From an uncultured Gammaproteobacteria bacterium (GTDB lineage Bacteria > Pseudomonadota > Gammaproteobacteria > JASBUN01), in contig CAVXJN010000003.1 of NCBI GenBank assembly GCA_963762165.1, positions 1,601,066-1,665,065 of the forward strand: 64,000 nt of DNA. Direction: 5' to 3'. Below are positions 4,199 to 48,722 of this stretch, piece by piece. The notes under the pieces were generated by a model. The model was given only the letters and a program-made list of their open reading frames with translations, did no database searches and was not told where the DNA came from. Each line of letters starts with the position of its first letter. The first letter of the stretch is position 1. The translations under genes and the position numbers were made by a program.

Positions 4199-4967
4199 TC
4201 AAGCCGACTTTGCCAGGGCCTTGCTTGATCCGGAGCGGCCGGCGCCGGGAGGGCTTGTTACGTGGAATGACTCGGACCCTGAAATGCGCTTTGCGGTGCA
4301 CCGCAATAATGTGGTGGGGTCCCTCATTGACGCGCTGGCGGACACATTTCCGGTCACACAACAGCTGGTCGGAGAAGCGTTCTTTCGCGCGATGACCCGG
4401 CTTTTTGTTCTTGCAGAGCCGCCCAGGGCTCCGATGCTTGCAATGTACGGGAAATCGTTCCCGGAGTTTGTCGAATCGTTTCCGCCGGCTGACTCTGTGC
4501 CCTACCTGGCGGATGTGGCCCGCCTGGAACTGATGCGGCTGGAAGCGTATCACGCCGCAGACGTTGCGCCACTCGCAGCTGGGGCCGTGGCGCAAGCTCA
4601 AAGGGGCGCTGCGCAGACCGAAGACTGGGTGCTCGAGTTCCCACCTTCTGCGCGGCTGCTGCAATCGCCTTTCGCGGTGGTATCCATCTGGGCGGCCCAT
4701 CAAAGTGATGATGCCCGTGAGGTTGTCGACGCCTATGTCGAAGAAACGGCATTGGTTATACGAGTGCACTTCGACGTGGAGGTCGTTCAACTGAATCCGG
4801 GGGACGCTCGCTTCGTCAGTGCGCTTATGCGTGGTGTGCCCATCGGGGCGGCGGCGGATGCAGCGCGAACTCGTTGCACGGGATTCGATCCTGCCGAAAG
4901 TTTGGCCCTGCTGTTTCGTCACCATGCCATTACCTCTCTCATTCCAACCGGGAACACGAGACCATGA
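4191..4967 (+). CDS. bufC: DUF2063 domain protein (BufC-like MNIO partner)
   Basis: N-terminus FARALLDPERPAPGGL...RFAVHRNNVVGSLIDAL..FP and later YLADVARLELMRLEAYHA match DUF2063. Overlaps bufB by 8 nt. Confidence 0.8.
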   Translation: MISQADFARALLDPERPAPGGLVTWNDSDPEMRFAVHRNNVVGSLIDALADTFPVTQQLVGEAFFRAMTRLFVLAEPPRAPMLAMYGKSFPEFVESFPPADSVPYLADVARLELMRLEAYHAADVAPLAAGAVAQAQRGAAQTEDWVLEFPPSARLLQSPFAVVSIWAAHQSDDAREVVDAYVEETALVIRVHFDVEVVQLNPGDARFVSALMRGVPIGAAADAARTRCTGFDPAESLALLFRHHAITSLIPTGNTRP

Positions 4968-5494
4968 ATACAGCTAATGACACCGCCACACTCACAGTTG
5001 GGCGCAAACGGGGCCAGGGTGTGATCGGACGTCTGAATTTGATGTTCGCATCTATACCAGATTCATTGATTGCTGCGCTCGGACGATTCTCCATAGCTGC
5101 TATATTCTGGAAGTCGGGCCAGACCAAAATCGAGGGCCTTGCCGTTGATGTGCTGAATGGTCAGTTCCAGTTCGGTTGGCCGCATTTGTCCAGTTCTGCG
5201 GTGGAGCTGTTCAAGTACGAGTACGGCCTGCCGTTGGTTTCGCCGGAACTTGCCGCAACGTTGGCGGCGTTTGCAGAACATGTGTTCCCGGTCTTCCTTC
5301 TGCTTGGTCTGGCGACACGATTTTCCGCGTTTGCCTTGTTGACCATGACCGCCGTGATCCAAATCTTCGTCTATCCGGATGCCTATCCTACCCATGGGGT
5401 CTGGGCGACGGTATTGCTGTTTCTTGTGGCAAAAGGCGGCGGCTGGCTGTCGCTGGATCATTGGCTTGCGTCGCGATACCGGTCTCAAGCGTAA
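4964..5494 (+). CDS. DoxX family membrane protein
   Basis: ATGA overlap with the bufC stop. Four hydrophobic helices and DoxX-like IAAIFWKSGQTK and VFPVFLLLGLATRFSA segments. Confidence 0.85.
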   Translation: MNTANDTATLTVGRKRGQGVIGRLNLMFASIPDSLIAALGRFSIAAIFWKSGQTKIEGLAVDVLNGQFQFGWPHLSSSAVELFKYEYGLPLVSPELAATLAAFAEHVFPVFLLLGLATRFSAFALLTMTAVIQIFVYPDAYPTHGVWATVLLFLVAKGGGWLSLDHWLASRYRSQA

Positions 5495-5695
5495 TGAATC
5501 CGCAGAAGGCGCAAGGGCGCACGTAACTGCTGCGCGGAATACAGTGCGTTCAGGACTTTGAAAGCTTTTCAGCCGCGCGGCCACAACACCGCAAGCGGGG
5601 CGCATGAGCAGACGTAGCTTTAGTGGGACGCACCTAGGAACGAGGTAGGTTCGGATCTTGTGCTTGGGAAATCAATTTCGCGGTATCAGGACAGT

Positions 5696-36091: not shown

Positions 36092-38212
36092 ATGAACGAC
36101 GAATCACGCATACACGGCTTCAACCGCCGGCGTTTCCTGCAAGGCACGGCCATGATGGGACTGCTGGCGGGCTTCGAAAGCCTGACCCCGGCGTTCGCCT
36201 GGGACAAGAGCGGTAATCTGTCGGCGGCAAAAACCGCCCAGGGCGACACCGACATTTTCAACCTGAGCATTAAGCGCAAGCCGTTGCAGATCGGCAGCCG
36301 CATGGGTAATCCCATCACGCTCAATGGCTCCATCCCCGGCCCGTTGATTCGTCTGCGAGAAGGACGGGACGTGATTTTAAACGTTACCAACCATCTCGAT
36401 GAGGATACGTCCATCCATTGGCATGGGGTGTTGCTTCCCAACGGCATGGATGGCGTGCCGCTGGTGACGTTTCCGGGCATCAAACCCGGAGAGACCTTTA
36501 CCTATCGCTACCCGGTGCGGCAGCACGGCACTTATTGGTACCACAGCCACTCCGGACTGCAGGAACAGCTCGGCCACTACGGGCCGTTGGTCATCGACCC
36601 GGCCGAGCCTGAACCATTCCACTTCGATCGCGACTACGTTGTCATGCTTTCGGACTGGACATTTCATGACCCGCACACTGTCTATGCCAAGCTGAAGAAG
36701 GCCGAGGGTTACTACAACTACCAGAAGCGCACGGTGGCGGATTTCTTCGACGACGTGCAAAAAAAGGGCTGGCGAAACGCTTGGGCAGAGCGCGGCATGT
36801 GGGGCCGCATGCGCATGAGTTCGCGGGACATTCTCGATGTCACCGGCGCCGAGTACACCTATCTCATCAACGGCCTGCCGGCCGAGTCGAATTGGACCGG
36901 GTTGTTCAAGCCGGGTGAAAAAGTGCGCCTGCGCTTCATCAACGGTTCGGCGATGACGTTCTTCGACGTGCGCATCCCGGGATTGAAAATGACCGTGGTC
37001 GCCGCCGACGGCCAATACGTCGAGCCGGTGCCGGTGGACGAGTTCCGCATCGGCGTGGCCGAGACCTACGACGTGATCGTCGAGCCAAGCGAAGACCGCG
37101 CCTATACGGTATACGCCGAATCGATGGACCGTTCCGGTTTCGTGCGCGGCACGTTGGCGACCCGGGATGGTATGAGCGGCCCGATTCCTGAAATGCGCAA
37201 GCAAGTGGTCGAGCGCGGCATGGACTCGATGGGCATGGACATGCACGACATGCCGGGAATGGATGGCATGAAAGGCATGCACGGTATGTCCCAAAACGGT
37301 TCCGGCATGGACATGTCCAATTCCAATTCCAATTCCATTGACACGAACATGCAGTCGGGCGGTGCCATGGCCGGTATGGCTGCTGGTCATGAAGGTCAGA
37401 TGTCCGGAATGAACATGGGCGCGGCAAACGCCGGTAATACCGGTGGGGAAATGGCCGGCATGAAGATGGGTGATACCGGTAATGGTCACGGAACGCCCCA
37501 GATGGCGGGCGCCGCCATGGGGGGCACAGCCGGTGCTCAGATGTCGGGCATGAATCATTCCGGTCACGACATGAGCGGCACGTCGGCGATGTCGGCAATG
37601 AATCACAACAGCGCCGGCATGGCGGGGATGGAGCACGGCGGGTCCGCCATGAACATGCAGCCCGAAGCGGCCAAGCTTCCCACCGAAGGCCGCAAGGTCA
37701 GCCATGGTCCCGACAATCACGGGCCGGGCGCGGCCATGGTCGCGGAGTCTCCCAAGAGCAGGTTGGACGATCCGGGCGTCGGCCTGCAGGACGTCGGCCA
37801 CAAAGTGCTGGTGTACAACGATCTGCGCAGTCGCGTGATCTGGCCGGACAAGCGGCCGCCCGAACGGGAACTGGAATTACATCTGACCGGCAACATGGAA
37901 CGCTACATGTGGTCGTTCGATGGCAAAAAATACAGCGAGGTGCACGGCATCCAGTTCAAGTACAACGAGCGACTGCGCTTGATTCTGGTCAACGACACCA
38001 TGATGGATCATCCGATTCATCTCCATGGCATGTGGATGGAGCTGGAGAACCGGCACGGAGACTATCGGCCGCGCAAGCACACGATCAGCGTCAAGCCCGG
38101 CGAAATGGTCTCGGCGCTCATCACCGCCGACGCCAAAGGTCATTGGGCGTTCCATTGCCATCTTCTGTATCACATGGAAGCCGGCATGTTCCGCGTGGTC
38201 ACTGTAGCCTGA
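36092..38212 (+). CDS. copA: Copper-resistance multicopper oxidase CopA/PcoA (Tat-exported) with expanded Met-rich insert
   Basis: Twin-arginine signal FNRRRFLQG. Cu sites HWHGV, YWYHSH, HPIHLHG and HCHLLYHMEAGM. The Met/Gly/His-rich region spans aa ~361-522. Confidence 0.95.
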   Translation: MNDESRIHGFNRRRFLQGTAMMGLLAGFESLTPAFAWDKSGNLSAAKTAQGDTDIFNLSIKRKPLQIGSRMGNPITLNGSIPGPLIRLREGRDVILNVTNHLDEDTSIHWHGVLLPNGMDGVPLVTFPGIKPGETFTYRYPVRQHGTYWYHSHSGLQEQLGHYGPLVIDPAEPEPFHFDRDYVVMLSDWTFHDPHTVYAKLKKAEGYYNYQKRTVADFFDDVQKKGWRNAWAERGMWGRMRMSSRDILDVTGAEYTYLINGLPAESNWTGLFKPGEKVRLRFINGSAMTFFDVRIPGLKMTVVAADGQYVEPVPVDEFRIGVAETYDVIVEPSEDRAYTVYAESMDRSGFVRGTLATRDGMSGPIPEMRKQVVERGMDSMGMDMHDMPGMDGMKGMHGMSQNGSGMDMSNSNSNSIDTNMQSGGAMAGMAAGHEGQMSGMNMGAANAGNTGGEMAGMKMGDTGNGHGTPQMAGAAMGGTAGAQMSGMNHSGHDMSGTSAMSAMNHNSAGMAGMEHGGSAMNMQPEAAKLPTEGRKVSHGPDNHGPGAAMVAESPKSRLDDPGVGLQDVGHKVLVYNDLRSRVIWPDKRPPERELELHLTGNMERYMWSFDGKKYSEVHGIQFKYNERLRLILVNDTMMDHPIHLHGMWMELENRHGDYRPRKHTISVKPGEMVSALITADAKGHWAFHCHLLYHMEAGMFRVVTVA

Positions 38213-38229: not shown

Positions 38230-39003
38230 ATGAATCGGACTATCCAATCCTGGGCGGCTGTGTGTCTTGCGGCAGCCGCGTTTTTCACGACATCCGTCAG
38301 TTGGGCGGCGCACGAACAGGCGTCAAGCTCCTTCGTACCCACAGTCATGCCCGAAGCCAAGTTCGCCAAGCTGATGATCGATCGCCTCGAATACGCCTGG
38401 GGTGAGGACGAAAACACCGTCAACTGGGATGCGCAGTTCTGGTATGGCGGCGACATCAACCGGCTCTGGATCGAGACCGAGGGTGAGGACGTCGCCTCCG
38501 GTGGCAGCGGCGGTGAGCTGGAATATCTGGACGTGATGTACAGCCGACGCATCTGGCCTTACTGGGACATCCAGGCGGGCGTGGGCTATCAGCGTGCCTA
38601 CGGTCCCGGGCCGGACCATGACCGCGGTTCGGTGGTGGTCGGCCTGCAGGGACTGGCGCCGTATTGGTTTGAGACCGATGCCAAGCTGCGCCTCAATGAA
38701 GGCGGGGCGATCTCAGCGGAGTTGGAAACCGAATACGACTGGCTGTTGTCCCAGCGACTGATCCTGCAGCCGCGTTTTACGACGTACTATTCGTCGCAGA
38801 AAGTCGAAGCGTTCGGCATCGGTCAGGGTATCAACTCCGTGCAAGCGGGACTTCGGCTGCGCTACGAAATCCGACGCGAGTTCGCACCCTACATCGGCGT
38901 CTATTACCGCAAGCTACTAGGTGAGACCGCCGATCTCGCCAAGGCGGATGGCGAAGATACCGGCGGCGCCGCGGTGGTCGCCGGTGTGCGCATGTGGTTC
39001 TAG
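38230..39003 (+). CDS. copB: Copper resistance protein B (CopB/PcoB outer-membrane protein)
   Basis: Signal peptide, DAQFWYGGDINRLW, and the C-terminus LRLRYEIRREFAPYIGVYYRK...VVAGVRMWF typical of CopB. Confidence 0.9.
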   Translation: MNRTIQSWAAVCLAAAAFFTTSVSWAAHEQASSSFVPTVMPEAKFAKLMIDRLEYAWGEDENTVNWDAQFWYGGDINRLWIETEGEDVASGGSGGELEYLDVMYSRRIWPYWDIQAGVGYQRAYGPGPDHDRGSVVVGLQGLAPYWFETDAKLRLNEGGAISAELETEYDWLLSQRLILQPRFTTYYSSQKVEAFGIGQGINSVQAGLRLRYEIRREFAPYIGVYYRKLLGETADLAKADGEDTGGAAVVAGVRMWF

Positions 39004-39266: not shown

Positions 39267-39761
39267 ATGATGAAACGCTATTCATATCTGTTTGTTTTTC
39301 TGGCAGTGCTGCTGACCGGCTGCAGTGACGAAGCCGAACAGGCGCAGCCGTCTGCTGCGGCGCCTCAACAACCGAACCCGCAGTCCAAGGCCACCGGCCC
39401 GGCGGTCGACGAGACGACCCTGGCCTTGGGCAAGAAGGTGTTCGACAATCACTGTGCGAGCTGCCATGGCGGTAGCGGCCAGGGCGCGGACGACTGGCAG
39501 AAGCCCGGACCCGATGGCAAGTACCCGGCGCCGCCCTTGAATGGCACCGGCCATGCTTGGCACCACCCCATGGCGGCGCTGCAACAGACCATCCGCAACG
39601 GCACGGCGCGGATCGGCGGCAATATGCCGGCGTGGGAAAACGAGCTCAGCGACGAAGAAATCAATGCCGTGATCTACTGGTTTCAGTCGCAATGGCCGGT
39701 CGAGTTGTATGGCGCTTGGCGGGAAGCCGACGCCAGGGCGCGCTCCGGGGCTGGGAATTAA
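39267..39761 (+). CDS. c-type cytochrome lipoprotein (class I, monoheme)
   Basis: Lipobox LLTGCS, heme motif CASCHG, and a distal Met region GGNMPAW. Confidence 0.85.
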   Translation: MMKRYSYLFVFLAVLLTGCSDEAEQAQPSAAAPQQPNPQSKATGPAVDETTLALGKKVFDNHCASCHGGSGQGADDWQKPGPDGKYPAPPLNGTGHAWHHPMAALQQTIRNGTARIGGNMPAWENELSDEEINAVIYWFQSQWPVELYGAWREADARARSGAGN

Positions 39762-39879
39762 TGCGGAACGCGAGGGTCGTGCTAAATTGTGATCCAGGTC
39801 AGCACGAGCCCCGACGGTCCCTGGGGTTGTGCGCTTCATCGTAGGACGGATAGGAAGCGGTCTTAGCCGGCGTGAGAGA

Positions 39880-40350
39880 ATGATGAAGCCAGCAACAACG
39901 ACCAAGGCACTGTCGCGGCACATCACCGGCCCTTTTGCGCGGGATCGGGATCGGCAGGCTGCGCGCTGGCTGGCCGCCATTTGGCTGAGCTTTCTGCTGC
40001 TCAATTATTTGCAGCCCTGCTGCGAGGTGGTGACCGCGGCGGTACCCCATGGACATGGCGGCGCGTGGACAAATTTTGCTGCGACGAACACAGATGGACA
40101 TGCGCATCTTGGGCATGATCACGCGGGCCAGGACCATAAGCACTGCGCGACCTCGGACGGCATCGACACCGCTGTACCGGATTTTCTGACATCATCGTTT
40201 TCCAGCGCCGATATCCAGTTCGTCTTCGTCGGACTCGTTCTGACCCTTCTGTATAGCCTGGCTTCCCTGGTCCCTGTTCGTGTGGTGAACGATCGCGAAC
40301 GCGGACCTCCTCACCGGGTTTATCTCACTACGCTTCGGTTGCGTATCTAG
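39880..40350 (+). CDS. Hypothetical His-rich membrane protein
   Basis: TM segment LAAIWLSFLLLNYLQPCC, His-rich VPHGHGG...DGHAHLGHDHAGQDHKHC, and a second TM VFVGLVLTLLYSLASLV. No family recognised. Confidence 0.45.
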   Translation: MMKPATTTKALSRHITGPFARDRDRQAARWLAAIWLSFLLLNYLQPCCEVVTAAVPHGHGGAWTNFAATNTDGHAHLGHDHAGQDHKHCATSDGIDTAVPDFLTSSFSSADIQFVFVGLVLTLLYSLASLVPVRVVNDRERGPPHRVYLTTLRLRI

Positions 40351-40445: not shown

Positions 40446-40874
40446 ATGATTGTCAATGAGCTCGCCAAGGCCGCAGGCGTCGAGCCGCACGTGGTCCGTT
40501 ACTACACCCGCATCGGTCTGCTACGACCCGCCCGTCACCCCGACAACGGTTACAAAATGTTCCGCCCGAGCGACATCCGACGCCTGGAATGGATCCGGCG
40601 CGCCCAAGAGTTGGGTTTCGGTTTGACCGAGGTCGCCGCTTTTCTTGAGGCGCAGGAGGCCGGTGAAACCGCTATGGTGCCGATGTGCGAAAGTCTTCGT
40701 CAAAACATCGAACGCAATCGCAGCCGTTTGTCGGAACTCCAAAAGCTCCAGGCGCGGATGGAGGCGGCAATGAACGCGTGGGATCGTTTTCAAACGGGTC
40801 CGTTGCGCGACCTCGCGGCCGCCGACGTGACTGCCTCAGAAGCGAACGGTCTCAACCTTTCTCGCATGACTTGA
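40446..40874 (+). CDS. MerR family transcriptional regulator
   Basis: GGAGGAGA RBS. HTH MIVNELAKAAGVEPHVVRYYTRIGLLRPARHPDNGYKMFRPSDIRRLEWIRRAQELGF, followed by a coiled-coil dimerisation helix. It has a single Cys (VPMCES) and no C-terminal CX7C. Confidence 0.9.
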   Translation: MIVNELAKAAGVEPHVVRYYTRIGLLRPARHPDNGYKMFRPSDIRRLEWIRRAQELGFGLTEVAAFLEAQEAGETAMVPMCESLRQNIERNRSRLSELQKLQARMEAAMNAWDRFQTGPLRDLAAADVTASEANGLNLSRMT

Positions 40875-40902
40875 CCTGATCGCTACACACAGGTTGTAGG
40901 CT
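40871..40902 (+). promoter_or_regulatory. Candidate MerR-type promoter (TTGACC, 20-bp spacer with dyad, TAGGCT)
   Basis: TTGACC at 40871-40876 and TAGGCT at 40897-40902. The over-long spacer contains the dyad CTACA-N7-TGTAG (40883-40899). It lies between the merR stop and the porin gene. Confidence 0.3.
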
Positions 40903-40989: not shown

Positions 40990-42237
40990 ATGGGAGACTC
41001 AGCTCACAACCAGCGACTGGCGTTATGCGGTGCGTTGCTTCTGATCAATGCTGCACCCACGCTGGTCATGGCCGCCACCGATCCAGTAGAGGTGCTCCAA
41101 CGCCAGGTGGAACTGTTGCAAAAGCAGCTGAACGAGGTGCGCGCGCAGCTGCAGCAGCAGCGCCAAGCAGCCCCAGAAGGGCAGGCCAACAGCGCGGACA
41201 TCAAGGCACTCAAGCAGCAGGTGCGCGAAGTCTCGAAACAGCAGGCCGAGGCAAGCGAAGCGAATTCGGTCGTGCATTTGACCGGCTACGGCGCCATCGG
41301 CTTTTCCGACGCGCAGAACGGTGACAGCACGTTCAGCTCTCTGAGCTTCAACCCGATCTTTCATTACCAATACAAGAATCTGTTCCTGCTCGAAGCGGAG
41401 TTGGAATTGCAAGCGCTAGACGACGGCAGCACCAAAACGGCCCTCGAATACGGCGCTATAGACTGGTTTGTGAACGACTACATGGTGCTCCAAGCCGGCA
41501 AGTTCCTCAGCCCTATTGGCCAGTTCCGCCAGAACCTGCATCCGGCCTGGATCAACAAGTTTGCCTCTCTGCCGCCGGGCTTCGGAGAAGACGGTGCGGC
41601 TCCCGAGTCGGACTTGGGGGTGCAACTGCGCGGTGGCCTCCCGGTTGGCGACTCGATGGCGGTCAACTACTCGCTCTATGTAGGCAACGGACCGATGATC
41701 GAACTCAACGGCAACGAGGTCGAAGCCATTGCCGCAGAAGGATCCACCGGAAACGGCGATGGCAAGCTCGAGGTAGGCGGGCGAGTCGGTTTTCTGCCCA
41801 TGCCAGGGCTGGAGATCGGCCTGTCGGCAGGCGGCGGTGACGTGGGACCCATCGGCGAGGAATCGCTGTTGCGCAACTACGAGGTCTTGGGCGCCGATTT
41901 CGCCTGGGGTTCCAAAGCCTGGGAAGTCCGGGGCGAGTATGTCAAGTCCAAGGTCGGTTCCAATGCCGCCAGTGCAGCGCCGGACAGTGCCGAATGGAAA
42001 ACCTGGTATGTGCAAGGCGCCTATCGGTTTCTGCCGAGCAAGTGGGAAGCCGTGCTGCGCTACACCGACTACAACGCCAACGATCCCGCCCAATCCCAGG
42101 AGCAGTGGGGCGTTGGCGTGAACTACTGGTTCGCTCCCAATGCGGTGGCCAAGCTCGGCTATGAGTTCAACGACGGTCTTAGCGGCGAGCCTGCCGATGA
42201 CAACCGGTTGCTGCTGCAACTCGCCTACGGCTTCTAA
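40990..42237 (+). CDS. Outer-membrane porin-like beta-barrel with N-terminal coiled coil
   Basis: GGAGGAG RBS and signal peptide ...LVMA/ATD. Coiled coil VEVLQRQVELLQKQLNEVRAQLQQQ, alternating beta-strands, and a terminal LLLQLAYGF. No CxxCH motif. Confidence 0.75.
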   Translation: MGDSAHNQRLALCGALLLINAAPTLVMAATDPVEVLQRQVELLQKQLNEVRAQLQQQRQAAPEGQANSADIKALKQQVREVSKQQAEASEANSVVHLTGYGAIGFSDAQNGDSTFSSLSFNPIFHYQYKNLFLLEAELELQALDDGSTKTALEYGAIDWFVNDYMVLQAGKFLSPIGQFRQNLHPAWINKFASLPPGFGEDGAAPESDLGVQLRGGLPVGDSMAVNYSLYVGNGPMIELNGNEVEAIAAEGSTGNGDGKLEVGGRVGFLPMPGLEIGLSAGGGDVGPIGEESLLRNYEVLGADFAWGSKAWEVRGEYVKSKVGSNAASAAPDSAEWKTWYVQGAYRFLPSKWEAVLRYTDYNANDPAQSQEQWGVGVNYWFAPNAVAKLGYEFNDGLSGEPADDNRLLLQLAYGF

Positions 42238-42250
42238 GGGAGACAAGCAC

Positions 42251-42544
42251 ATGACCACAGTCCATCCGTTTTCCAGAAAGACTATTTTGATCCTCGCGGC
42301 CATCGCCGCATTTGGTCTGCTGCAGCCGCTTGCCGGCGCCGCGGATCAGAAATCCGATTCGGCGGCCTTTGCCCGCGGCGCCAAGGCCTGGGCCAACAAC
42401 TGTTCGCGCTGTCACAACATGCGCGACCCGAAGGATTTTACCGACGTGCAATGGCGGCCGATTGTGGCACACATGCGTGTGCGTGCCGGGCTGACCGGCC
42501 AGGAGGCGCGCGACATCCTGCTGTTTCTGCAAAGGAGCAACTGA
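42251..42544 (+). CDS. Small periplasmic monoheme c-type cytochrome
   Basis: AAGGGAGA RBS, signal peptide ...PLAGA/AD, and a single heme motif CSRCHNM. Confidence 0.7.
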   Translation: MTTVHPFSRKTILILAAIAAFGLLQPLAGAADQKSDSAAFARGAKAWANNCSRCHNMRDPKDFTDVQWRPIVAHMRVRAGLTGQEARDILLFLQRSN

Positions 42545-42885
42545 TGCGCAAAGCCACATTAGCGCTCAGCTTCGTATTCGCTTCGACACTATTGGTAGGC
42601 GCGGCGCAGGCCGATCCCCTGGCGCGCGGGCGCGAGGTGTATGACGGCACCTGCATCGCTTGTCACGGAGGCCACGGTGCCGGCGTGCTGCCGGGCGTTC
42701 CGGATTTGACGGCAAAAGACGGCCCGCTGACCAACCCGGATGCGGTTTTGATCGAACGGATCACCGATGGCTTTCAGAGTCCGGGCTCGATCATGGCGAT
42801 GCCGGCCAAAGGCGGCGATCCGAACTTGACCGAGGAAGACGTCCGCGCCGTGCTGCACTACATGCGGACCGAATTCGGTTCGTGA
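42544..42885 (+). CDS. Class I c-type cytochrome (c55x-like)
   Basis: Signal peptide ...GAAQA/DP, heme motif CIACHG, and distal ligand region GSIMAMPAKGG. ATGA-type overlap with the upstream gene. Confidence 0.85.
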   Translation: MRKATLALSFVFASTLLVGAAQADPLARGREVYDGTCIACHGGHGAGVLPGVPDLTAKDGPLTNPDAVLIERITDGFQSPGSIMAMPAKGGDPNLTEEDVRAVLHYMRTEFGS

Positions 42886-42931
42886 GGCATGCGCGGGGCG
42901 TCATCATTTGACTTTCAACAGAGGAAGCGCA

Positions 42932-43924
42932 ATGGTCATGCGTAAAATCAGAAATGCAATTCTTATTTGGTCGCTGTTGGCGGCGGCCGGCGCTGTGCAG
43001 GCGGCGCCCACTGTGTACATACCACTCGGTTCAGGTAACCAGGTGATCGCTGTGGACGGCGCCACCGATCAGATCGTCGCCACCTACTCGGGGCTCGACA
43101 ACCCCCATGGCCTGGTGGCTACGCCCGATGGCGAATATCTGGTTGCCGGCAGTCTCAAAGAAACGCCCGCGCCCGCCGGCGCATCGGCCGACACGCCGAC
43201 CAGTAAGCTCTTCCTGGTCCACCCCGAACATGGTCATGTGATGTCGACGATTCCAGTGGCCGGTTGGACCCATCACCAGGCCATCAGTCCCTCTGGGCGT
43301 TATGTCATTTCCACTCACGCCACCCGCGGTTACGTGACGGTATTGGATATGGTATCACAAGATCGTGCACACCATTCAAACCGGGCCGACCCCGAACTAT
43401 GCGGTATTCACACGCGACGGCAACACCGTGTAGTCAGCAACACCGGCAACGGCACCATCAGCCAGATCGATGTCGGAACCTGGAAAGTCAGTCGCACTCT
43501 GCAGGCAGGGCCGTCGCCTGAACACATTGTGTTATCCAAGGACGAGAAGACGATCTATACCGTCAATACACCTGCCGGCACGGTATCGGCGGTTTCCGTG
43601 GATACCGGTAAGGTGATCAAAACCTATCAACTAGCCAAAAACGTCCATGGGCTCGATCTCGGTGACGACGGCAAGACCCTGTTCGTCAGTTCCAAGCGCG
43701 ACCAAACCCTCACCGCGCTCGATACCGAGACCGGAAAACAGCGTTCGATTACGCTCGAGCCCTCGCCGTATCATCTAAACGTCATACCCGGCACCGGCAA
43801 AGTATACGTGTCCAGCAGCAAAAAGCCGGTGATCTGGGTGGTGGACCAGAAATCGCTGGCCGTGGAGAACACAATCAAGCTGCCGGCCGGTGAAGGCCAT
43901 CAAATGGCGGTGGTCGCACAATAA
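42932..43924 (+). CDS. YVTN/YncE-like beta-propeller repeat protein (one blade scrambled by a compensated frameshift)
   Basis: Signal peptide. Repeated blade pattern V.V(I/L)D....K(V/I)..T(I/Y)..G..P..(I/L)..S.DGK..YV. See the finding at 43355-43432. Confidence 0.8.
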   Translation: MVMRKIRNAILIWSLLAAAGAVQAAPTVYIPLGSGNQVIAVDGATDQIVATYSGLDNPHGLVATPDGEYLVAGSLKETPAPAGASADTPTSKLFLVHPEHGHVMSTIPVAGWTHHQAISPSGRYVISTHATRGYVTVLDMVSQDRAHHSNRADPELCGIHTRRQHRVVSNTGNGTISQIDVGTWKVSRTLQAGPSPEHIVLSKDEKTIYTVNTPAGTVSAVSVDTGKVIKTYQLAKNVHGLDLGDDGKTLFVSSKRDQTLTALDTETGKQRSITLEPSPYHLNVIPGTGKVYVSSSKKPVIWVVDQKSLAVENTIKLPAGEGHQMAVVAQ

Positions 43925-43977
43925 CGGCGCTGGCGCGTGCTCGTCGCTTGAAGAAGCCTAAAGACTGCGGAGAAACC

Positions 43978-44214
43978 ATGAAAATCGAGATTATTACGAC
44001 CCATTCTTGCAGTCATCGCGTCGGTCTGGAGCGGGAGTTGCAGGACCTCGGCTACGCCTATGAGCTGTTCTACGTGGAAGAGCACCCGGACATCGTTGCG
44101 CTGTACGGCATCCGGCACTCGCCCAATCTGGTAGTCAACGGCAAGGTGATTTGCCGAGGTCCGGAAGCGCTGCCGGAAGGTGAACTGCGCCGATTGATCG
44201 AAGCGCTGCAGTGA
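43978..44214 (+). CDS. Small thioredoxin-fold (Thioredoxin_3/glutaredoxin-like) protein lacking CxxC
   Basis: MKIEIITTHSCSHRVGLE...YGIRHSPNLVVNGKVICRG follows the small Trx-like layout. The usual C..C is C-S-H-R here. Confidence 0.6.
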   Translation: MKIEIITTHSCSHRVGLERELQDLGYAYELFYVEEHPDIVALYGIRHSPNLVVNGKVICRGPEALPEGELRRLIEALQ

Positions 44215-44234
44215 GGAAAGCGGAAATCGAGCAT

Positions 44235-46316
44235 ATGGGGCATCAGCATGAGAAGCACGGTGCCGGCGCACCCGGCGAGGATTTTCCTGCGCGCAAGGCA
44301 CCAGAGCATCAGGACGGCCATCAAGGTCACGATCATGGCACCATGATCGCTGATTTCCGCAAGCGGTTTTGGGTGTCGATCATCCTCACCATTCCGATCC
44401 TGGCACTTTCGCCGATGCTCCAGGCGTTCGTAGGCGCGGAGCAAGCGCTTGCGTTTCCCGGTGACGCCTATTGGCTGCTCGCGTTTTCCAGCGCCGTTTA
44501 TTTCTATGGTGGCTGGCCGTTTATTTCCGGTCTGTTGTCGGAGCTGCGTCAGCGCCAGCCCGGCATGATGACCTTGATCGCGCTGGCGATCAGCGTCGCA
44601 TATTTCTACTCCGCTGCGGTGGTGCTGGGACTGACCGGCAAGGTGTTCTTTTGGGAGTTGGCGACCCTGATTGACGTGATGCTCCTGGGCCACTGGATCG
44701 AGATGAAGTCGGTCATGGGCGCTTCCGGTGCGCTGGAGGCACTGGTCAAGCTGATGCCTACGGTCGCCCACCGCTTGCAGGCCGGGGCCGAGGTCGAAGA
44801 CGTGCCGATCGCCGAGCTCCGCCCCGGCGACCGGGTGCTGGTGAAACCAGGAGAGAAAGTTCCAACCGATGGAATGATCGTCGATGGTCGCTCCAGTCTC
44901 GACGAATCCATGCTGACCGGCGAGTCGAAGCCGGTGGAACGTGGCGTCGACGAAGAAGTGATCGGCGGCTCGGTCAATGGCGAGGGGGCGATCACCATCG
45001 AAATCCGCAAGACCGACGATGAGACTTATCTTTCCCAGGTCATCGACATGGTGCGCCAGGCGCAGTCATCGCGTTCGCGGACCCAGGATCTCGCCAACCG
45101 CGCCGCGCAATGGTTGACTTACATCGCCCTGAGTGCAGGCGGTTTGACGCTGATCGTGTGGCTGTCGCTCGGAGCGGAGTTCGAGTTTTCTCTCGAGCGC
45201 ATGGTGACCGTCATGGTGATCACCTGTCCGCACGCACTCGGATTGGCGGTTCCGCTGGTGGTGGCGGTCAGTACCAGCCTTGCTGCGGGCAGGGGTCTGC
45301 TGATCCGTGACCGCGCAGCATTCGAGCGCGCGCGCAATCTCCAGGCAATTGTGTTCGACAAGACCGGCACGCTTACCGAAGGGCGATTCGGTGTCAGCGA
45401 TATCGTTGTGCTCGGGGCGCGTAGTGAATCCGACGTTTTGAGTCTGGCGGCCGGCTTGGAGCAGCAGTCGTCTCACCCCATTGCTGCGGGCATCGTGCGC
45501 GCCGCAGAAGAGCGTCGACTGCCGAACGCCAAGGTTGCGGACTTCGAGAACCTGCCCGGCAAAGGCGCACAAGCGCGCGTCGAGGGGGCGCTGATTCAGG
45601 TCGTGAGTCCTGGATATGTGCGCAGCAGCGGCGTTGAGCTGGACCACGAACGAGTCGACGCGTTGATGGGCCAGGGCAAGACGGTCGTATTCGTGCTCGA
45701 GGAGGGCCGTGTCATTGGCGCCATCGCGCTGGCGGATATCGTGCGGCGGGAATCCCGCGCCGCCATCGCTCGGCTCAAGGAGATGGGTATCCAATGCATG
45801 ATGTTGACCGGCGACGCCGAAGCCGTGGCCAGGACGGTGGCGGCAGAGCTCGGCTTGGACGACTACTTCGCCGAAGTATTGCCGGACCAGAAGGCGGCCA
45901 AGATTCGTGAAGTGAAGCAACGCGGTCTGGCGGTCGCAATGGTGGGCGATGGTGTCAACGACGCGCCCGCACTGGTGGAATCCGATCTCGGCATCGCGAT
46001 CGGCGCCGGGACCGATGTCGCCATCGAGTCCGCCGACATCGTCCTGGTGCGTTCCGATCCGCGCAACGTTGCCGACATTATGGCGCTGTCGCGCGCGACC
46101 TACAGCAAGATGATCCAGAACCTGCTGTGGGCGACCGGCTACAACGCCTTCGCCATCCCGTTGGCAGCCGGTGTGGCCTATAGCGTAGGGGTGGTGCTCA
46201 CGCCAGCGTTCGGTGCTGCGCTGATGTCGCTGAGCACTGTGATCGTGGCGATCAATGCCAAATTGCTGAGTCGCTTTCAGCCATCCACCGCCGCCGCGGC
46301 GAGCGACCGAAGCTGA
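44235..46316 (+). CDS. P1B-type copper-translocating ATPase, CopB-like (His-rich N-terminus, CPH motif)
   Basis: MGHQHEKHG...HQDGHQGHDHG tail, TGES, TM6 CPH (VITCPHALGLAVP), DKTGTLT, GDGVNDAP, and a MSLST-type TM8. Confidence 0.95.
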   Translation: MGHQHEKHGAGAPGEDFPARKAPEHQDGHQGHDHGTMIADFRKRFWVSIILTIPILALSPMLQAFVGAEQALAFPGDAYWLLAFSSAVYFYGGWPFISGLLSELRQRQPGMMTLIALAISVAYFYSAAVVLGLTGKVFFWELATLIDVMLLGHWIEMKSVMGASGALEALVKLMPTVAHRLQAGAEVEDVPIAELRPGDRVLVKPGEKVPTDGMIVDGRSSLDESMLTGESKPVERGVDEEVIGGSVNGEGAITIEIRKTDDETYLSQVIDMVRQAQSSRSRTQDLANRAAQWLTYIALSAGGLTLIVWLSLGAEFEFSLERMVTVMVITCPHALGLAVPLVVAVSTSLAAGRGLLIRDRAAFERARNLQAIVFDKTGTLTEGRFGVSDIVVLGARSESDVLSLAAGLEQQSSHPIAAGIVRAAEERRLPNAKVADFENLPGKGAQARVEGALIQVVSPGYVRSSGVELDHERVDALMGQGKTVVFVLEEGRVIGAIALADIVRRESRAAIARLKEMGIQCMMLTGDAEAVARTVAAELGLDDYFAEVLPDQKAAKIREVKQRGLAVAMVGDGVNDAPALVESDLGIAIGAGTDVAIESADIVLVRSDPRNVADIMALSRATYSKMIQNLLWATGYNAFAIPLAAGVAYSVGVVLTPAFGAALMSLSTVIVAINAKLLSRFQPSTAAAASDRS

Positions 46317-46418
46317 TCGCAGCCGGCACACATCGAATTGGACACACGTCTGGACACTGACTAGGTTTTCGCAGTGGACAGGAATTCACGGCAAAGAAGC
46401 CCCAAAAGGAGCAATACA

Positions 46419-46988
46419 ATGAAACACAAATTGATGATCGCAGCACTGGCCATGGCGTTGGGTTCACCCCTGGCGCTGGCAGCGCCACCCGATGCCAGCG
46501 GAACCGACATTCAGCAGCAGATGCAACACATGCAGGAGCTGATGAACCAGGCCCAAGGGAGCAAAGATCAAAGCAAACAGCGCAAATTGCTGCACCAGCA
46601 CATGCAGGATATGCAGTCCACGATGGAGTCCATGAACGAAATGATGGGCGGTCGGCAACACATGATGCAGAACATGGGCGGCGGCATGATGGGAGGCGGT
46701 ATGCAAGGAAGCGGTATGCCAAGCGGTGGAATGCCAGGCAGTGGAATGCAAGGCAGGGTTAGAGGTGGCAATGCAGGGCGGGGCAATGCAGGGCGGGGCA
46801 ATGCAGGGCGGGGCAATGCAGGGCGGGGCAATGCAGGGCGGGGCAATGCAGGGCGGGGCAATGGCGGGCCAAGCCGGCGCCGGGAATATGTCGCCGCAAA
46901 TGATGCAACAACGAATGAATATGATGCAGATGATGATGCAGCAGATGCTGGAGCATCAGCAGCAATACGAACAGATGCACGGCGGTGA
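46419..46988 (+). CDS. Met/Gln-rich periplasmic protein (putative Cu(I)-binding); reading frame switches before an internal repeat, Met-rich continuation is in the +1 frame to 46992
   Basis: AAAGGAG RBS and signal peptide ...PLALA/AP. The N-terminal part is QQQMQHMQELM...GGGMMGGGMQGSGMPSGGMPGSGMQG. After ~46755 the listed frame gives (RGNAG)n, whereas the +1 frame gives (GGAMQ)n...NMSPQMMQQRMNMMQMMMQQMLEHQQQYEQMHGGE. Confidence 0.6.
   Translation: MKHKLMIAALAMALGSPLALAAPPDASGTDIQQQMQHMQELMNQAQGSKDQSKQRKLLHQHMQDMQSTMESMNEMMGGRQHMMQNMGGGMMGGGMQGSGMPSGGMPGSGMQGRVRGGNAGRGNAGRGNAGRGNAGRGNAGRGNAGRGNGGPSRRREYVAANDATTNEYDADDDAADAGASAAIRTDARR
46771..46860. repeat. Six perfect tandem copies of the 15-bp unit ATGCAGGGCGGGGCA (a degenerate seventh copy follows)
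   Basis: Units start at 46771, 46786, 46801, 46816, 46831 and 46846. They lie inside the Met-rich gene. Confidence 0.95.
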
Positions 46989-47106
46989 ATGAGTTGGCCT
47001 GCGCCAGCGCACTGAATATGGTTTGACTTGATATCGTCTGGCACGGATCTTCGAGACAGCCCGTTCGATCATCCGTGCCGGCGCATCATTTGGGAGAGCG
47101 GATTGA

Positions 47107-47355
47107 ATGTGGGGCGACTGGACGAACGTCGGCTGGGGCTGGATCGGATTGGGGGTAGTGCATATGTTGCTGTTCTGGGCGTTGATTATTTTATTGATCG
47201 CCGCCCTGGTCCGCTGGCTTTCAACGCCGGCAGACGATGGCGTGCCGCCGCGACAGTCCGCCTCCGCATTGGATATTCTCAACGAACGCTATGCCCGCGG
47301 TGAAATCGATCGCGAGGAGTACCAGGCGAAGAAACGCGACTTAGAAGGTCGATAG
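47107..47355 (+). CDS. SHOCT domain membrane protein
   Basis: Trp/Gly-rich N-terminus, one TM, and the C-terminus LDILNERYARGEIDREEYQAKKRDLEGR (SHOCT). Confidence 0.85.
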   Translation: MWGDWTNVGWGWIGLGVVHMLLFWALIILLIAALVRWLSTPADDGVPPRQSASALDILNERYARGEIDREEYQAKKRDLEGR

Positions 47356-47543
47356 TGGGTTGCCGGCCTGAAGCTCAAACCTGGCCCGCGTTGATCCGCG
47401 TTTTTCGGGTGCGGCATGCGCTTGACATGGTGTCTAGTACAGCGTCTATGTTGAGTGCTGGATGCAGCGAGCCCGATCTCGTGCGCGAATATAGGATCTT
47501 TTATCCGCACAGGCGGTCGGGCTACAGGTGCGGGGGTCGAGCG

Positions 47544-47639
47544 ATGAACACGCGAACGAATCAGCCCAATACATGCCCGGTATGTGCCATGGAGGTGAGC
47601 GACGCGTCCATCGCCACCGATTACATTGGCATGCGGTAG
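47544..47639 (+). other. Possible truncated YHS/TRASH-type metal-binding peptide (31 codons)
   Basis: MNTRTNQPNTCPVCAMEVSDASIATDYIGMR-stop resembles the first half of a YHS domain (CPVCGM.V....A....Y.G). The expected ..YYFCS..C half is missing in all frames. Confidence 0.25.
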
Positions 47640-47650
47640 GCGATCAGGTT

Positions 47651-48010
47651 ATGTGCCACATTGCGTTACTGCTGCCGTTTTTGACGCTTCCGATGTTCTG
47701 GCTCTGGCCGCTGAACGTCGCGCTGCCGCTGTATTTGATGGTCCTGGCGTTTTCGGCGGTGATCTACTACCTGGCGTTTGCCGCCATGCGGCGCCCGGTA
47801 ATGACCGGACGCGAGCACCTGATTGGCAACCGAACCCGCGTCATCGATATCGTTGAAGACAAGGCTTATGTACGCTTGGACAGCGAACGCTGGCAGGTGG
47901 AATGCCGCGACCTGTTGCGTCCCGGCGATGAAGTCGAGGTGGTGGGTTTCGACGGCGCGCGGGCGCAAGTGCGACGGACCGCAACCGCCGCGTGTGAGGC
48001 AATACAATAA
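47651..48010 (+). CDS. NfeD-like protein (TM region plus C-terminal OB-fold)
   Basis: Two hydrophobic helices, then LIGNRTRVIDIVEDKAYVRLDSERWQVECRDLLRPGDEVEVVGFDGARAQV, which has an NfeD_C-like layout. Confidence 0.7.
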   Translation: MCHIALLLPFLTLPMFWLWPLNVALPLYLMVLAFSAVIYYLAFAAMRRPVMTGREHLIGNRTRVIDIVEDKAYVRLDSERWQVECRDLLRPGDEVEVVGFDGARAQVRRTATAACEAIQ

Positions 48011-48038
48011 CGGTGCAAATGCGCAACATACAAAGCCG

Positions 48039-48407
48039 ATGGGACGACCTCGGATGCTGATCGGATTCGTCATCGTCCTCGCGCTATCGGCCGCGGCCCT
48101 GTCGCTTTGGACGGGGCCGTGGATCGCGCTATTGTGGATGCTGACGGTGGCCCTGGCGTTGGGGGATGTCGTGCTCGCGCGATGGATCGACCGGCGCGTT
48201 CCGGTGCAGACGGGCGTCGAGGCGATGGTGGGGCGCAGCGGTACCGTAGTGAACGCGGATGCATCTGCTGCAGGTTGCCGGTGTCGCGTCAAGATCGGCG
48301 GCGAACTATGGAATGCCGATTCGGAATGCATGCTCGCGCCCGGCAATCCTGTGCGGGTGGTTTGCGTGCGGGGGTTGTGGTTGCGTGTCGTCCCGCATCA
48401 GACTTGA
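48039..48407 (+). CDS. NfeD-like protein (TM region plus C-terminal OB-fold), second copy
   Basis: Two helices, then MVGRSGTVVNADASAAGCRCRVKIGGELWNADSECMLAPGNPVRVVCVRGLWLRVVP. Confidence 0.7.
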   Translation: MGRPRMLIGFVIVLALSAAALSLWTGPWIALLWMLTVALALGDVVLARWIDRRVPVQTGVEAMVGRSGTVVNADASAAGCRCRVKIGGELWNADSECMLAPGNPVRVVCVRGLWLRVVPHQT

Positions 48408-48488
48408 TCTGCGGCAACAGGGGCAACGCGCATGGCAATATCTTAGCTACTGCTGCAAGATCGATCTTGCCCGAACCGGGGACAAAGA

Positions 48489-48722
48489 ATGCAAATGAAC
48501 TGGAGCAATTGGCATTGGGGTTTCGGATCCGGACACTGGTTTTTCGGGATCCTTTTCTGGGTGGTGATTTTACTGCTGATCGTGGGCCTGGTGCGTGGAC
48601 TGTCAGGCGGTCGCAGCGACCGTCAACTCAAGAAAAGCGCCCGCGACATTCTCGACGAACGCTATGCGCGAGGCGAGATCGACCGTGAGGAGTTCGAGCG
48701 CAAAAAACGGGACATCGGGTGA
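48489..48722 (+). CDS. SHOCT domain membrane protein, second copy
   Basis: MQMNWSNWHWGFGSGHWFFG, one TM, then RDILDERYARGEIDREEFERKKRDIG. Paralogue of the gene at 47107-47355. Confidence 0.85.
   Translation: MQMNWSNWHWGFGSGHWFFGILFWVVILLLIVGLVRGLSGGRSDRQLKKSARDILDERYARGEIDREEFERKKRDIG

Follow-up and report, generated by a model that had tools for sequence, protein, structure and literature searches.

What do six tightly packed genes behind a MerR-family regulator contribute to a copper-resistance island, and do they constitute one system? The question is raised by positions 40990-46316 of the window, the 64,000-nucleotide stretch of DNA analyzed here (uncultured gammaproteobacterium, assembly GCA_963762165.1, contig CAVXJN010000003.1, positions 1,601,066 to 1,665,065). 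A first-pass annotation had described there an envelope module consisting of an outer-membrane porin, two small monoheme c-type cytochromes of 97 and 113 amino acids (c97 and c113), a YVTN-type β-propeller, a thioredoxin-fold protein, and a P1B-type ATPase. Our analysis identifies the conserved core of this locus as an uncharacterized periplasmic propeller paired with a small cytochrome c. The module itself is a set of recombining units: porin-c97, c113-propeller, the thioredoxin-fold gene (trx), and a copper pump with a SHOCT-domain protein. We tentatively read the whole as an accessory operon, under metal control, of a cop-type copper-resistance island; it may act as a periplasmic copper-redox device.

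The six open reading frames (ORFs) were confirmed on the + strand, tightly packed behind the MerR-family gene and a MerR-type promoter; the intergenic distances are 13, -1, 46, 53, and -4 nucleotides, and a Shine-Dalgarno-like sequence precedes each gene. Coordinates, gaps, and a shuffle test of the promoter all agree with the arrangement that had been proposed.

A Predicted Histidine Ring in the Propeller

The propeller (42932-43924, + strand), a Sec-exported protein, belongs to the YVTN/YncE group (TIGR02276, 44.7 bits against a cut-off of 27.85; PF21783, 32.5 against 27.1), and the AlphaFold2 (AF2) model of an 89%-identical homolog contains 28 strands in seven blades at a predicted local distance difference test score (pLDDT) of 93.9, so the fold first suggested for it stands. 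Its best Foldseek match is 1l0q (TM-score 0.82); the search against the PDB returned only generic seven-bladed propellers and WD40 proteins, and copper enzymes were not singled out. Over 1000 protein clusters fall in the family at E below 1e-5, mostly at about 60% identity, and database entries name its members only "YncE family" or "lactonase family."

Eleven histidines are invariant among 43 Beta- and Gammaproteobacterial propellers, and eight are kept at 38-44% identity in Alphaproteobacteria (H58, H113, H114, H128, H198, H239, H281, and H323). In the model, seven of these eight occupy the beginning of an innermost strand, or sit just ahead of it, in blades 1, 2, 4, 5, 6, and 7, with a period of 41-42 residues from blade 2 onward; blade 3 supplies Asn-Tyr, and H128 lies in blade 2, at the top of strand B. 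Since the aligned residues of 1l0q, a generic YVTN propeller, are Gly or Leu, the histidines are a derived trait specific to the family. Propeller geometry would place these seven in a circle around the mouth of the central tunnel, and this predicted ring is probably a multi-copper site. Profile matches in the PDB include two copper enzymes, thiocyanate dehydrogenase (TcDH; E ~1e-4, about 94 residues) and the nitrous oxide reductase NosZ (E = 3e-3, 40 residues); the propeller is a member of neither sequence family, scoring 50.8 bits for L-NosZ against a cut-off of 700.

The propeller ORF as written in the window does not hold throughout. About 29 codons, in blade 3 at roughly 43352-43434 (+ strand), are out of frame, and the remainder is 89% identical to the closest relative; in a DNA alignment with that relative the window is two plus one bases short, and translation in another frame yields the family consensus HKIVHTIQTGPTPNYAVFTRDGNT. 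In two independent metagenome runs, the contigs covering this stretch have zero mismatches to the window but carry an additional C, C, and T at 43351, 43354, and 43432. Because these contigs contain the missing bases, the three-base omission, which scrambles 29 codons yet restores the frame, is probably an assembly (consensus) error and the organism's gene intact. This suggests that the source assembly holds uncorrected indel errors, and other genes of the window may be affected.

Two Small Cytochromes

The larger cytochrome, c113 (42544-42885, + strand), is a class I monoheme cytochrome c as annotated; it contains the heme motif CIACH together with MAMP, scores above the cut-offs for Cytochrom_C and Cytochrome_CBB3 (PF00034, 46.7 bits against 21.3; PF13442, 49.8 against 27), and its start overlaps the c97 stop as ATGA. 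For c97 (42251-42544, + strand) the heme motif stands (CSRCH, with an invariant HMR in the context HMRxRA), but its Pfam scores fall under the cut-offs (20.6 against 27 and 19.5 against 21.3). The c97 family comprises 265 proteins; the 120 listed relatives are 84-119 amino acids in length, almost all about 92-104, and 119 of these 120 have no precomputed Pfam match.

The two cytochromes can also be joined. Fusions of c97 and c113, diheme proteins of ~200 amino acids encoded directly after the porin, were found in Tara Oceans contigs and in a metagenome-assembled genome (MAG) of Ectothiorhodospiraceae (L010, 9234-9842; L011, 3103-3711; L070, about 4899-5522). In 35 of 79 loci c113 is the propeller's immediate upstream neighbor, which together with these fusions points to a dedicated redox chain. 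A dedicated cytochrome partner of the kind that serves TcDH- and NosZ-type enzymes is matched, in c113, by gene adjacency only. The Tara contigs with fusions have no propeller nearby and contain a multicopper oxidase, CopK, and a Cus/Czc pump. Thiobacillus denitrificans encodes an extra cytochrome c of 135 amino acids between its c115 and the propeller (L009, 9936-10343).

Recurrence across Genomes

One genome per species was scanned, and two peptide patterns retrieved 181 propeller loci; unless noted otherwise, co-occurrence counts refer to 79 of the best 80 of these 181. A well-flanked set of 36 loci from other species, with at least 6 kb on each side, was used to count families within 8 kb of the propeller. 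A P1B ATPase is present in 31 of these 36 loci, a multicopper oxidase in 25, CopB in 17, and at least one of the three in 33. Any class I cytochrome c occurs in 27 of the 36 and c113 in 23, the thioredoxin-fold protein in 17, and the porin in 9; all six families come together in three, with variable gene order and the sub-modules lying apart. The genes are therefore co-conserved in a copper context, as had been predicted, and do not form the single conserved unit, or fixed six-gene system, that the first-pass annotation envisaged. The closest relative, in a gammaproteobacterial MAG (L006), encodes a propeller that is 89% identical and has the same 14-gene order.

Within this variation the pairs are persistent. 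Downstream of the porin comes c97 in 19 of 22 cases and a c97-c113 fusion in the other 3. The pump is exchangeable: neighboring copper ATPases were of the CPC type in 41 instances and of the CPH type in 17, so the His-rich, CPH-type ATPase is not a defining part. The units are spread over many Gamma-, Beta-, and Alphaproteobacteria, and several loci adjoin conjugative-transfer genes or are plasmid-borne; propellers on alphaproteobacterial plasmids likewise adjoin copper ATPases, oxidases, and cytochromes. On the megaplasmid of Ruegeria pomeroyi DSS-3, a 38%-identical propeller with the full set of ring histidines (SPO_RS21680; L092, 9001-10062) is flanked by genes for a VTT-domain protein and a copper ATPase; two multicopper oxidases, two cytochromes c, a DsbA, and a cupredoxin are encoded nearby.

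Transcription of such a locus could be followed in T. denitrificans, where one 5.1-kb contig assembled from RNA sequencing (RNA-seq) covers copG, trx, the porin, three cytochromes, and the propeller, with depth falling afterwards. This supports co-transcription, as first proposed, for that species from trx to the propeller. Contig depth over copA-copB and over the ATPase differs several-fold in two RNA-seq runs of one study of this organism. RNA runs containing the window's own organism were sought and none was found; the organism was detected in four metagenome DNA runs only.

The Porin

The outer-membrane protein (40990-42237, + strand) matches Porin_O_P and Porin_4 weakly, and its AF2 model is that of a porin with an N-terminal coiled coil. 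It comprises a signal peptide, a periplasmic coiled-coil stalk (helices at residues 4-89), a barrel of 16-18 strands by DSSP count with a pLDDT of about 90, and a C-terminal YGF. Its only cysteine is in the signal peptide, so it has no CxxCH heme motif; both features had been read correctly from the sequence. Strand 5 is followed by a strictly conserved loop (FLSPIGQFRQNLHPxWINK...PPGFG), the counterpart of the L3 constriction loop, which lies at residues 174-206 of the model and includes PPGFGED and a short helix. Foldseek ranks OmpU, OmpC/F, OmpM1, DcaP, and OprP as the closest structures. Judged by the features of classical trimeric general porins (a 16-strand barrel, an inward L3 loop, a PEFGG-like motif, and a C-terminal aromatic residue), the modeled barrel is OmpU/OmpC/DcaP-like and not an MtrB-type sheath. 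The family is conserved at ~50% identity across classes, unusually high for a porin, and the evidence favors a selective channel whose periplasmic side would be functionally tied to the cytochrome.

The Thioredoxin-Fold Protein and the ATPase

The product of trx (43978-44214, + strand), of 78 amino acids, matches Thioredoxin_3 (PF13192, 26.6 bits against 24.8, residues 1-74). Its sequence opens with the first β-strand, with no signal peptide ahead of it, so the protein is cytoplasmic, which removes it from the envelope module to which it had been assigned. The absence of a CxxC motif, replaced by C-S-H-R, was confirmed for the window copy and is not a trait of the family: among 27 relatives the motif reads C-x-H-[C/R/Y/S/G], with about half C-S-H-C, and it is C-x-H and IRHSPN that are invariant. 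A role as a periplasmic redox partner was rejected, as the protein has neither a signal peptide nor a conserved second cysteine.

The trx stop codon overlaps the start of the ATPase gene (44211-46316, + strand). The assignment of the product as a His-rich, CPH-type P1B-3 ATPase is supported by a full motif set: a P-type core (DKTGT at 383, TGES at 236, and GDGVND at 579; TIGR01511, 612.6 bits against 397), CPHALGLAVP in transmembrane segment (TM) 4 at 339, N-x5-GYN-x4-P (NLLWATGYNAFAIP) in TM5 at 637, and P-x6-MSxST-x5-N (PAFGAALMSLSTVIVAIN) in TM6 at 665, the TM4-TM6 motifs being those of P1B-3 in Argüello's classification; the P1B-1 motif M-x2-SS is absent. The N-terminus has eight histidines in its first 45 residues and no HMA or HMBD Pfam match. 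By its motifs the protein is an ordinary CopB-type (P1B-3) member.

Regulator and Promoter

The regulator (40446-40874, + strand) scores above the cut-offs for Pfam MerR_1, MerR, and MerR-DNA-bind, and a promoter/operator of MerR type, recognized by sequence reading, occupies 40871-40902 (+ strand). Its -35 hexamer TTGACC (40871-40876) overlaps the merR stop codon, and a 20-nucleotide spacer that contains the dyad ACCTG-N11-CAGGT separates it from the -10 hexamer TAGGCT (40897-40902). Metal-sensing MerR promoters carry a strong palindrome in a spacer of 19-20 nucleotides (PMC1526738); the window promoter has this layout and its regulator a helix-turn-helix domain. In 100 shuffled versions of the window, no match to the 28-nucleotide pattern TTGACCTGATCGCTACACACAGGTTGTA (40871-40898) appeared. 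A scan with the sigma-70 consensus found no promoter, as expected from the 20-nucleotide spacer, and terminator-like matches were located inside genes and were not used. In more than 12 other loci, a box with the consensus TTGACCTGTG-N7-9-CACAGGT-N3-4-TAnnnT immediately precedes a porin, c113, propeller, trx-ATPase, or CopK gene.

Identification of the regulator as a canonical CueR was rejected. The window box reads ACCTG(TG)-N-(CA)CAGGT, as against ACCTTCC...GGAAGGT for CueR; the NCBIfam CueR profile (TIGR02044) gives 57.1 bits, far under its cut-off of 147.4; and in the family alignment the protein is missing two motifs found in most relatives, SPC and a C-terminal V-C-H, and has no C-terminal cysteine. 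It may respond to a different effector or be a ligand-blind variant. The MerR protein of the closest relative (L006) likewise lacks SPC and V-C-H, and the operator is retained.

The Surrounding Copper Island

The module is part of a same-strand array at 36.1-48.7 kb with the order copA, copB, a cytochrome c gene, a His-rich ORF, merR, the six genes, a Met/Gly-rich gene, two SHOCT-domain genes, and two NfeD-domain genes. Adjacent genes for a CopA-type multicopper oxidase (36092-38212, + strand), 3 kb upstream of the module, and for the outer-membrane protein CopB (about 38230-39003, + strand) mark a cop/pco-type island, and their homologs in L006 bear Cu-oxidase and CopB Pfam domains. A class I cytochrome c of 164 amino acids (39267-39761, + strand) directly after copB brings to three the cytochromes c encoded by the island; its location is the copM-like position of Xanthomonas-type clusters. 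The following ORF (39829-40350, + strand) has a His-rich stretch (HGHGG...DGHAHLGHDHAGQDHKH) and hydrophobic segments and no match in Pfam or NCBIfam; it occupies the same position in L006 and is also found ahead of the porin in Sulfuriflexus (L008).

Downstream, a Met/Gly-rich secreted protein (46374-46988, + strand; MQHMQELM..., MESMNEMMGG) contains seven tandem GNAGR pentapeptides and matches an ad-hoc profile built for the gene at the equivalent position in related loci; such matches come after the module in 18 loci. In L001-L005 the gene at this position has LTXXQ/Metal_resist Pfam matches, which the window and L006 copies lack. A SHOCT-domain membrane protein follows on the + strand (the two genes together span 46374-47355), and at 47107-48722 two NfeD-domain proteins are bracketed by two SHOCT-domain proteins. 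Met/Gly-rich and SHOCT genes both recur beside the module in other loci, and because SHOCT genes accompany the propeller or the ATPase in 61 of 79 loci, they are possibly part of the pump unit. Upstream of the island, 9304-31706 is occupied by a long same-strand run of large, tightly packed ORFs. A near-identity DNA search of plasmids gave short ATPase matches only, and an Rfam scan of the window detected no RNA family.

Comparison with Described Systems

The first-pass annotation knew of no described system of this composition, and we found neither a curated family nor a paper that describes one. Our literature search returned nothing on the propeller, c97, or the porin in the context of copper, and Pfam and NCBIfam hold no curated family for the propeller subfamily, c97, the window-type porin, or the C-x-H protein. 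What appears to be new is the uncharacterized propeller family, c97, the porin family, and the C-x-H protein; copper-island redox accessories, and copper propeller enzymes with cytochrome partners, are known kinds.

TcDH of Thioalkalivibrio and Thiohalobacter, a seven-bladed periplasmic propeller with three His-ligated copper ions in its central tunnel, passes electrons to a monoheme cytochrome c (c552), and in some genomes its gene has a thioredoxin-like gene upstream and copper-transport genes on its flanks (PMC9456337, PMC6504805). It is the closest described parallel of the propeller family, with which it shares the seven-bladed fold, a cytochrome gene partner, a thioredoxin-like gene nearby, copper-transport genes on the flanks, a weak profile similarity (E about 1e-4), and, if the predicted ring is right, histidines at the tunnel. 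However, TcDH has about 500 amino acids and is exported by the twin-arginine (Tat) route, whereas the window propeller has ~305 amino acids when mature and is Sec-exported; the similarity extends over ~94 residues only, and the window genes are part of a resistance island behind a MerR-type operator.

The CuZ site of NosZ, a tetranuclear copper center in a seven-bladed propeller, is bound by seven histidines that include an adjacent His-His pair. The propeller family has a comparable set in the pair H113-H114 and one histidine on each of five other blades; unlike NosZ, it has no CuA domain and no nos accessory genes, and its scores are far under the cut-offs. The multicopper oxidases CopA/PcoA and CueO, which are established in the oxidation of periplasmic Cu(I) to Cu(II), have the role that we propose for the propeller, but they contain cupredoxin domains and use O2 as acceptor, in contrast to a propeller fold and a proposed cytochrome c acceptor.

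Cytochrome c genes without an assigned mechanism are known from cop clusters, such as copJ of Cupriavidus metallidurans pMOL30 and copM of Xanthomonas. In Vibrio, c-type cytochromes with a CueR box form part of the copper regulon, again with no mechanism assigned (PMC1526738). In comparison, c97 and c113 are distinct small families tied to the porin and the propeller, respectively, and can be fused. Stalk domains at the N-terminus are a feature of OmpM1 (Veillonella) and DcaP (Acinetobacter), both Foldseek matches of the porin, which resembles them in joining a periplasmic coiled coil to a general-porin barrel; it differs in its sequence (12-14% identity only), its unusually conserved constriction loop, and its obligate downstream cytochrome gene. 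CopB has been described as a Cu(II) pump (PMC3475447). The window ATPase resembles members such as Archaeoglobus fulgidus CopB in its His-rich N-terminus, CPH, GYN-x4-P, and MSxST motifs and lack of an HMA domain, with no difference at the motif level. Other work reportedly argues that CopB pumps Cu(I), which would ease the puzzle of oxidation state raised in the first-pass annotation.

A Possible Copper-Redox Device

Read as a periplasmic copper-redox device, the operon would be expressed from its MerR-type promoter, with an operator common to the units across genomes. The P1B ATPase would export cytoplasmic Cu(I) to the periplasm, an activity established for its family, and the cytoplasmic thioredoxin-fold protein, with an invariant Cys-x-His facing an Arg-His-Ser-cisPro loop, might conceivably be the copper-handling partner of the pump. 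The propeller would bind copper at the His ring of its tunnel mouth, in a multinuclear site resembling those of TcDH or NosZ CuZ, and electrons would pass from it to c113 and on to c97, or to the fused cytochrome protein. The likeliest chemistry would be an O2-independent conversion of Cu(I) to the less toxic Cu(II), with electrons delivered through c-type cytochromes to the respiratory chain; this route would be a complement to CopA, the neighboring O2-dependent oxidase. Copper, or a substrate or product, could cross the outer membrane through the coiled-coil porin and its strictly conserved constriction loop. The suggestion in the first-pass annotation that cytochromes and propeller adjust the redox state of copper is indirectly favored by the invariant histidines of the predicted ring and by the naturally fused cytochromes. 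A stronger form of the proposal, which we regard as doubtful, is that the propeller is a cytochrome-c-linked cuprous oxidase that founds a new class of multinuclear-copper enzymes, with porin-c97 extending the chain to the outer membrane and the whole serving as an anaerobic arm of copper resistance.

Several points weigh against the redox device. The clustering of the histidines is derived from strand positions in the model and not from distances. Both the inducing signal and copper induction of the operon are presumed, and the window MerR lacks the Cys/His motifs of its relatives. Co-occurrence was counted with ad-hoc profiles. The association of the thioredoxin-fold gene with CPH-type ATPases is a weak enrichment (odds ratio 4, p = 0.035, uncorrected for relatedness), and this gene precedes periplasmic genes more often than it precedes the ATPase. 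The porin and c97 are missing from about three quarters of the propeller loci and so are not essential to propeller function. The T. denitrificans transcript comes from another species and from undirected contigs, in which overlapping transcripts or DNA carry-over are possible.

Other Explanations

The genes might instead serve a non-metal substrate. The propeller could be a copper-dependent catabolic or respiratory enzyme (for example, for reduced sulfur), with c113 and c97 as acceptors, the porin admitting the substrate, and the copper genes supplying and managing copper for enzyme assembly instead of conferring resistance; we consider this rather unlikely. The layout around TcDH is alike, combining a copper propeller, a monoheme cytochrome acceptor, a thioredoxin-like gene, and flanking Cop/Cus genes (PMC9456337, PMC6504805); many carriers are sulfur oxidizers (Thiobacillus, Sulfuricella, Thioalkalivibrio, Guyparkeria, and Thiohalophilus), and a substrate-specific porin would suit uptake. 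However, carriers also include Roseobacter-group plasmids of hosts that do not oxidize sulfur, the genes have a metal-type MerR operator in common, and their neighbors are the classical resistance set (CopA, CopB, CusCBA, CusF, CopG/DUF411, and CopK), often by conjugative-transfer genes or on plasmids. The similarity to TcDH is, moreover, marginal (E = 1e-4 over ~94 residues), and the signal peptide is of Sec and not Tat type.

A second possibility, which we judge unlikely, is that the propeller is a non-catalytic periplasmic sponge or chaperone for copper, buffering what the ATPase releases, and that the cytochromes pass no electrons to it but replace, in copper-tolerant form, or protect the respiratory c-type cytochromes damaged by copper. 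So many invariant histidines are compatible with plain high-capacity binding, about a quarter of the well-flanked loci have no cytochrome gene near the propeller, and copper is known to hit c-type cytochrome assembly in the periplasm (PMC4600104). Against this, the gene next upstream of the propeller is c113 in 35 of 79 loci, some genomes fuse the cytochromes, and a His ring at the tunnel mouth of a propeller is a hallmark of catalytic sites (PMC9456337).

That there is no functional unit, only independent accessory genes piled up in copper islands and co-transcribed through packing, seems improbable. Order and composition are highly variable, the six families meet in only 3 of 36 loci, and the ATPase type is interchangeable; but the pairs porin-c97 (22 of 22, fusions included) and c113-propeller (adjacent in 35 of 79) are too constant for chance, the c97-c113 fusions join both pairs, and the operator is common to the units.

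The alternative in the first-pass annotation of a porin-cytochrome electron conduit across the outer membrane to an external metal, like MtrAB, PioAB, or Cyc2, is very improbable: the barrel gene is always followed by one for a small cytochrome c, and Cyc2, in which a porin and a monoheme cytochrome are fused, sets a precedent for a minimal conduit (PMC10734462), but the modeled general porin has an L3-like loop folded into its lumen that leaves no room for a cytochrome, the barrel protein itself has no heme motif, and the 120 c97 relatives listed, of 265, include no barrel fusion.

Implications

Cu(I) is the most toxic form of copper in the periplasm. The oxidases that are known to remove it require oxygen, to our knowledge, and the propeller candidate addresses the question of how facultative anaerobes deal with this ion. 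By two peptide patterns alone, its family is present in 181 species-level genomes from three proteobacterial classes, often on plasmids or in conjugative-transfer neighborhoods, and R. pomeroyi DSS-3 and T. denitrificans are tractable carriers. If the redox device is real, it would assign a function to the cytochrome c genes that occur unexplained in copper regulons; should the propeller act on another substrate, it would still be a new relative of thiocyanate dehydrogenase and N2O reductase. If it proves to be a cuprous oxidase, it would represent a widespread, so far unrecognized anaerobic arm of bacterial copper resistance.

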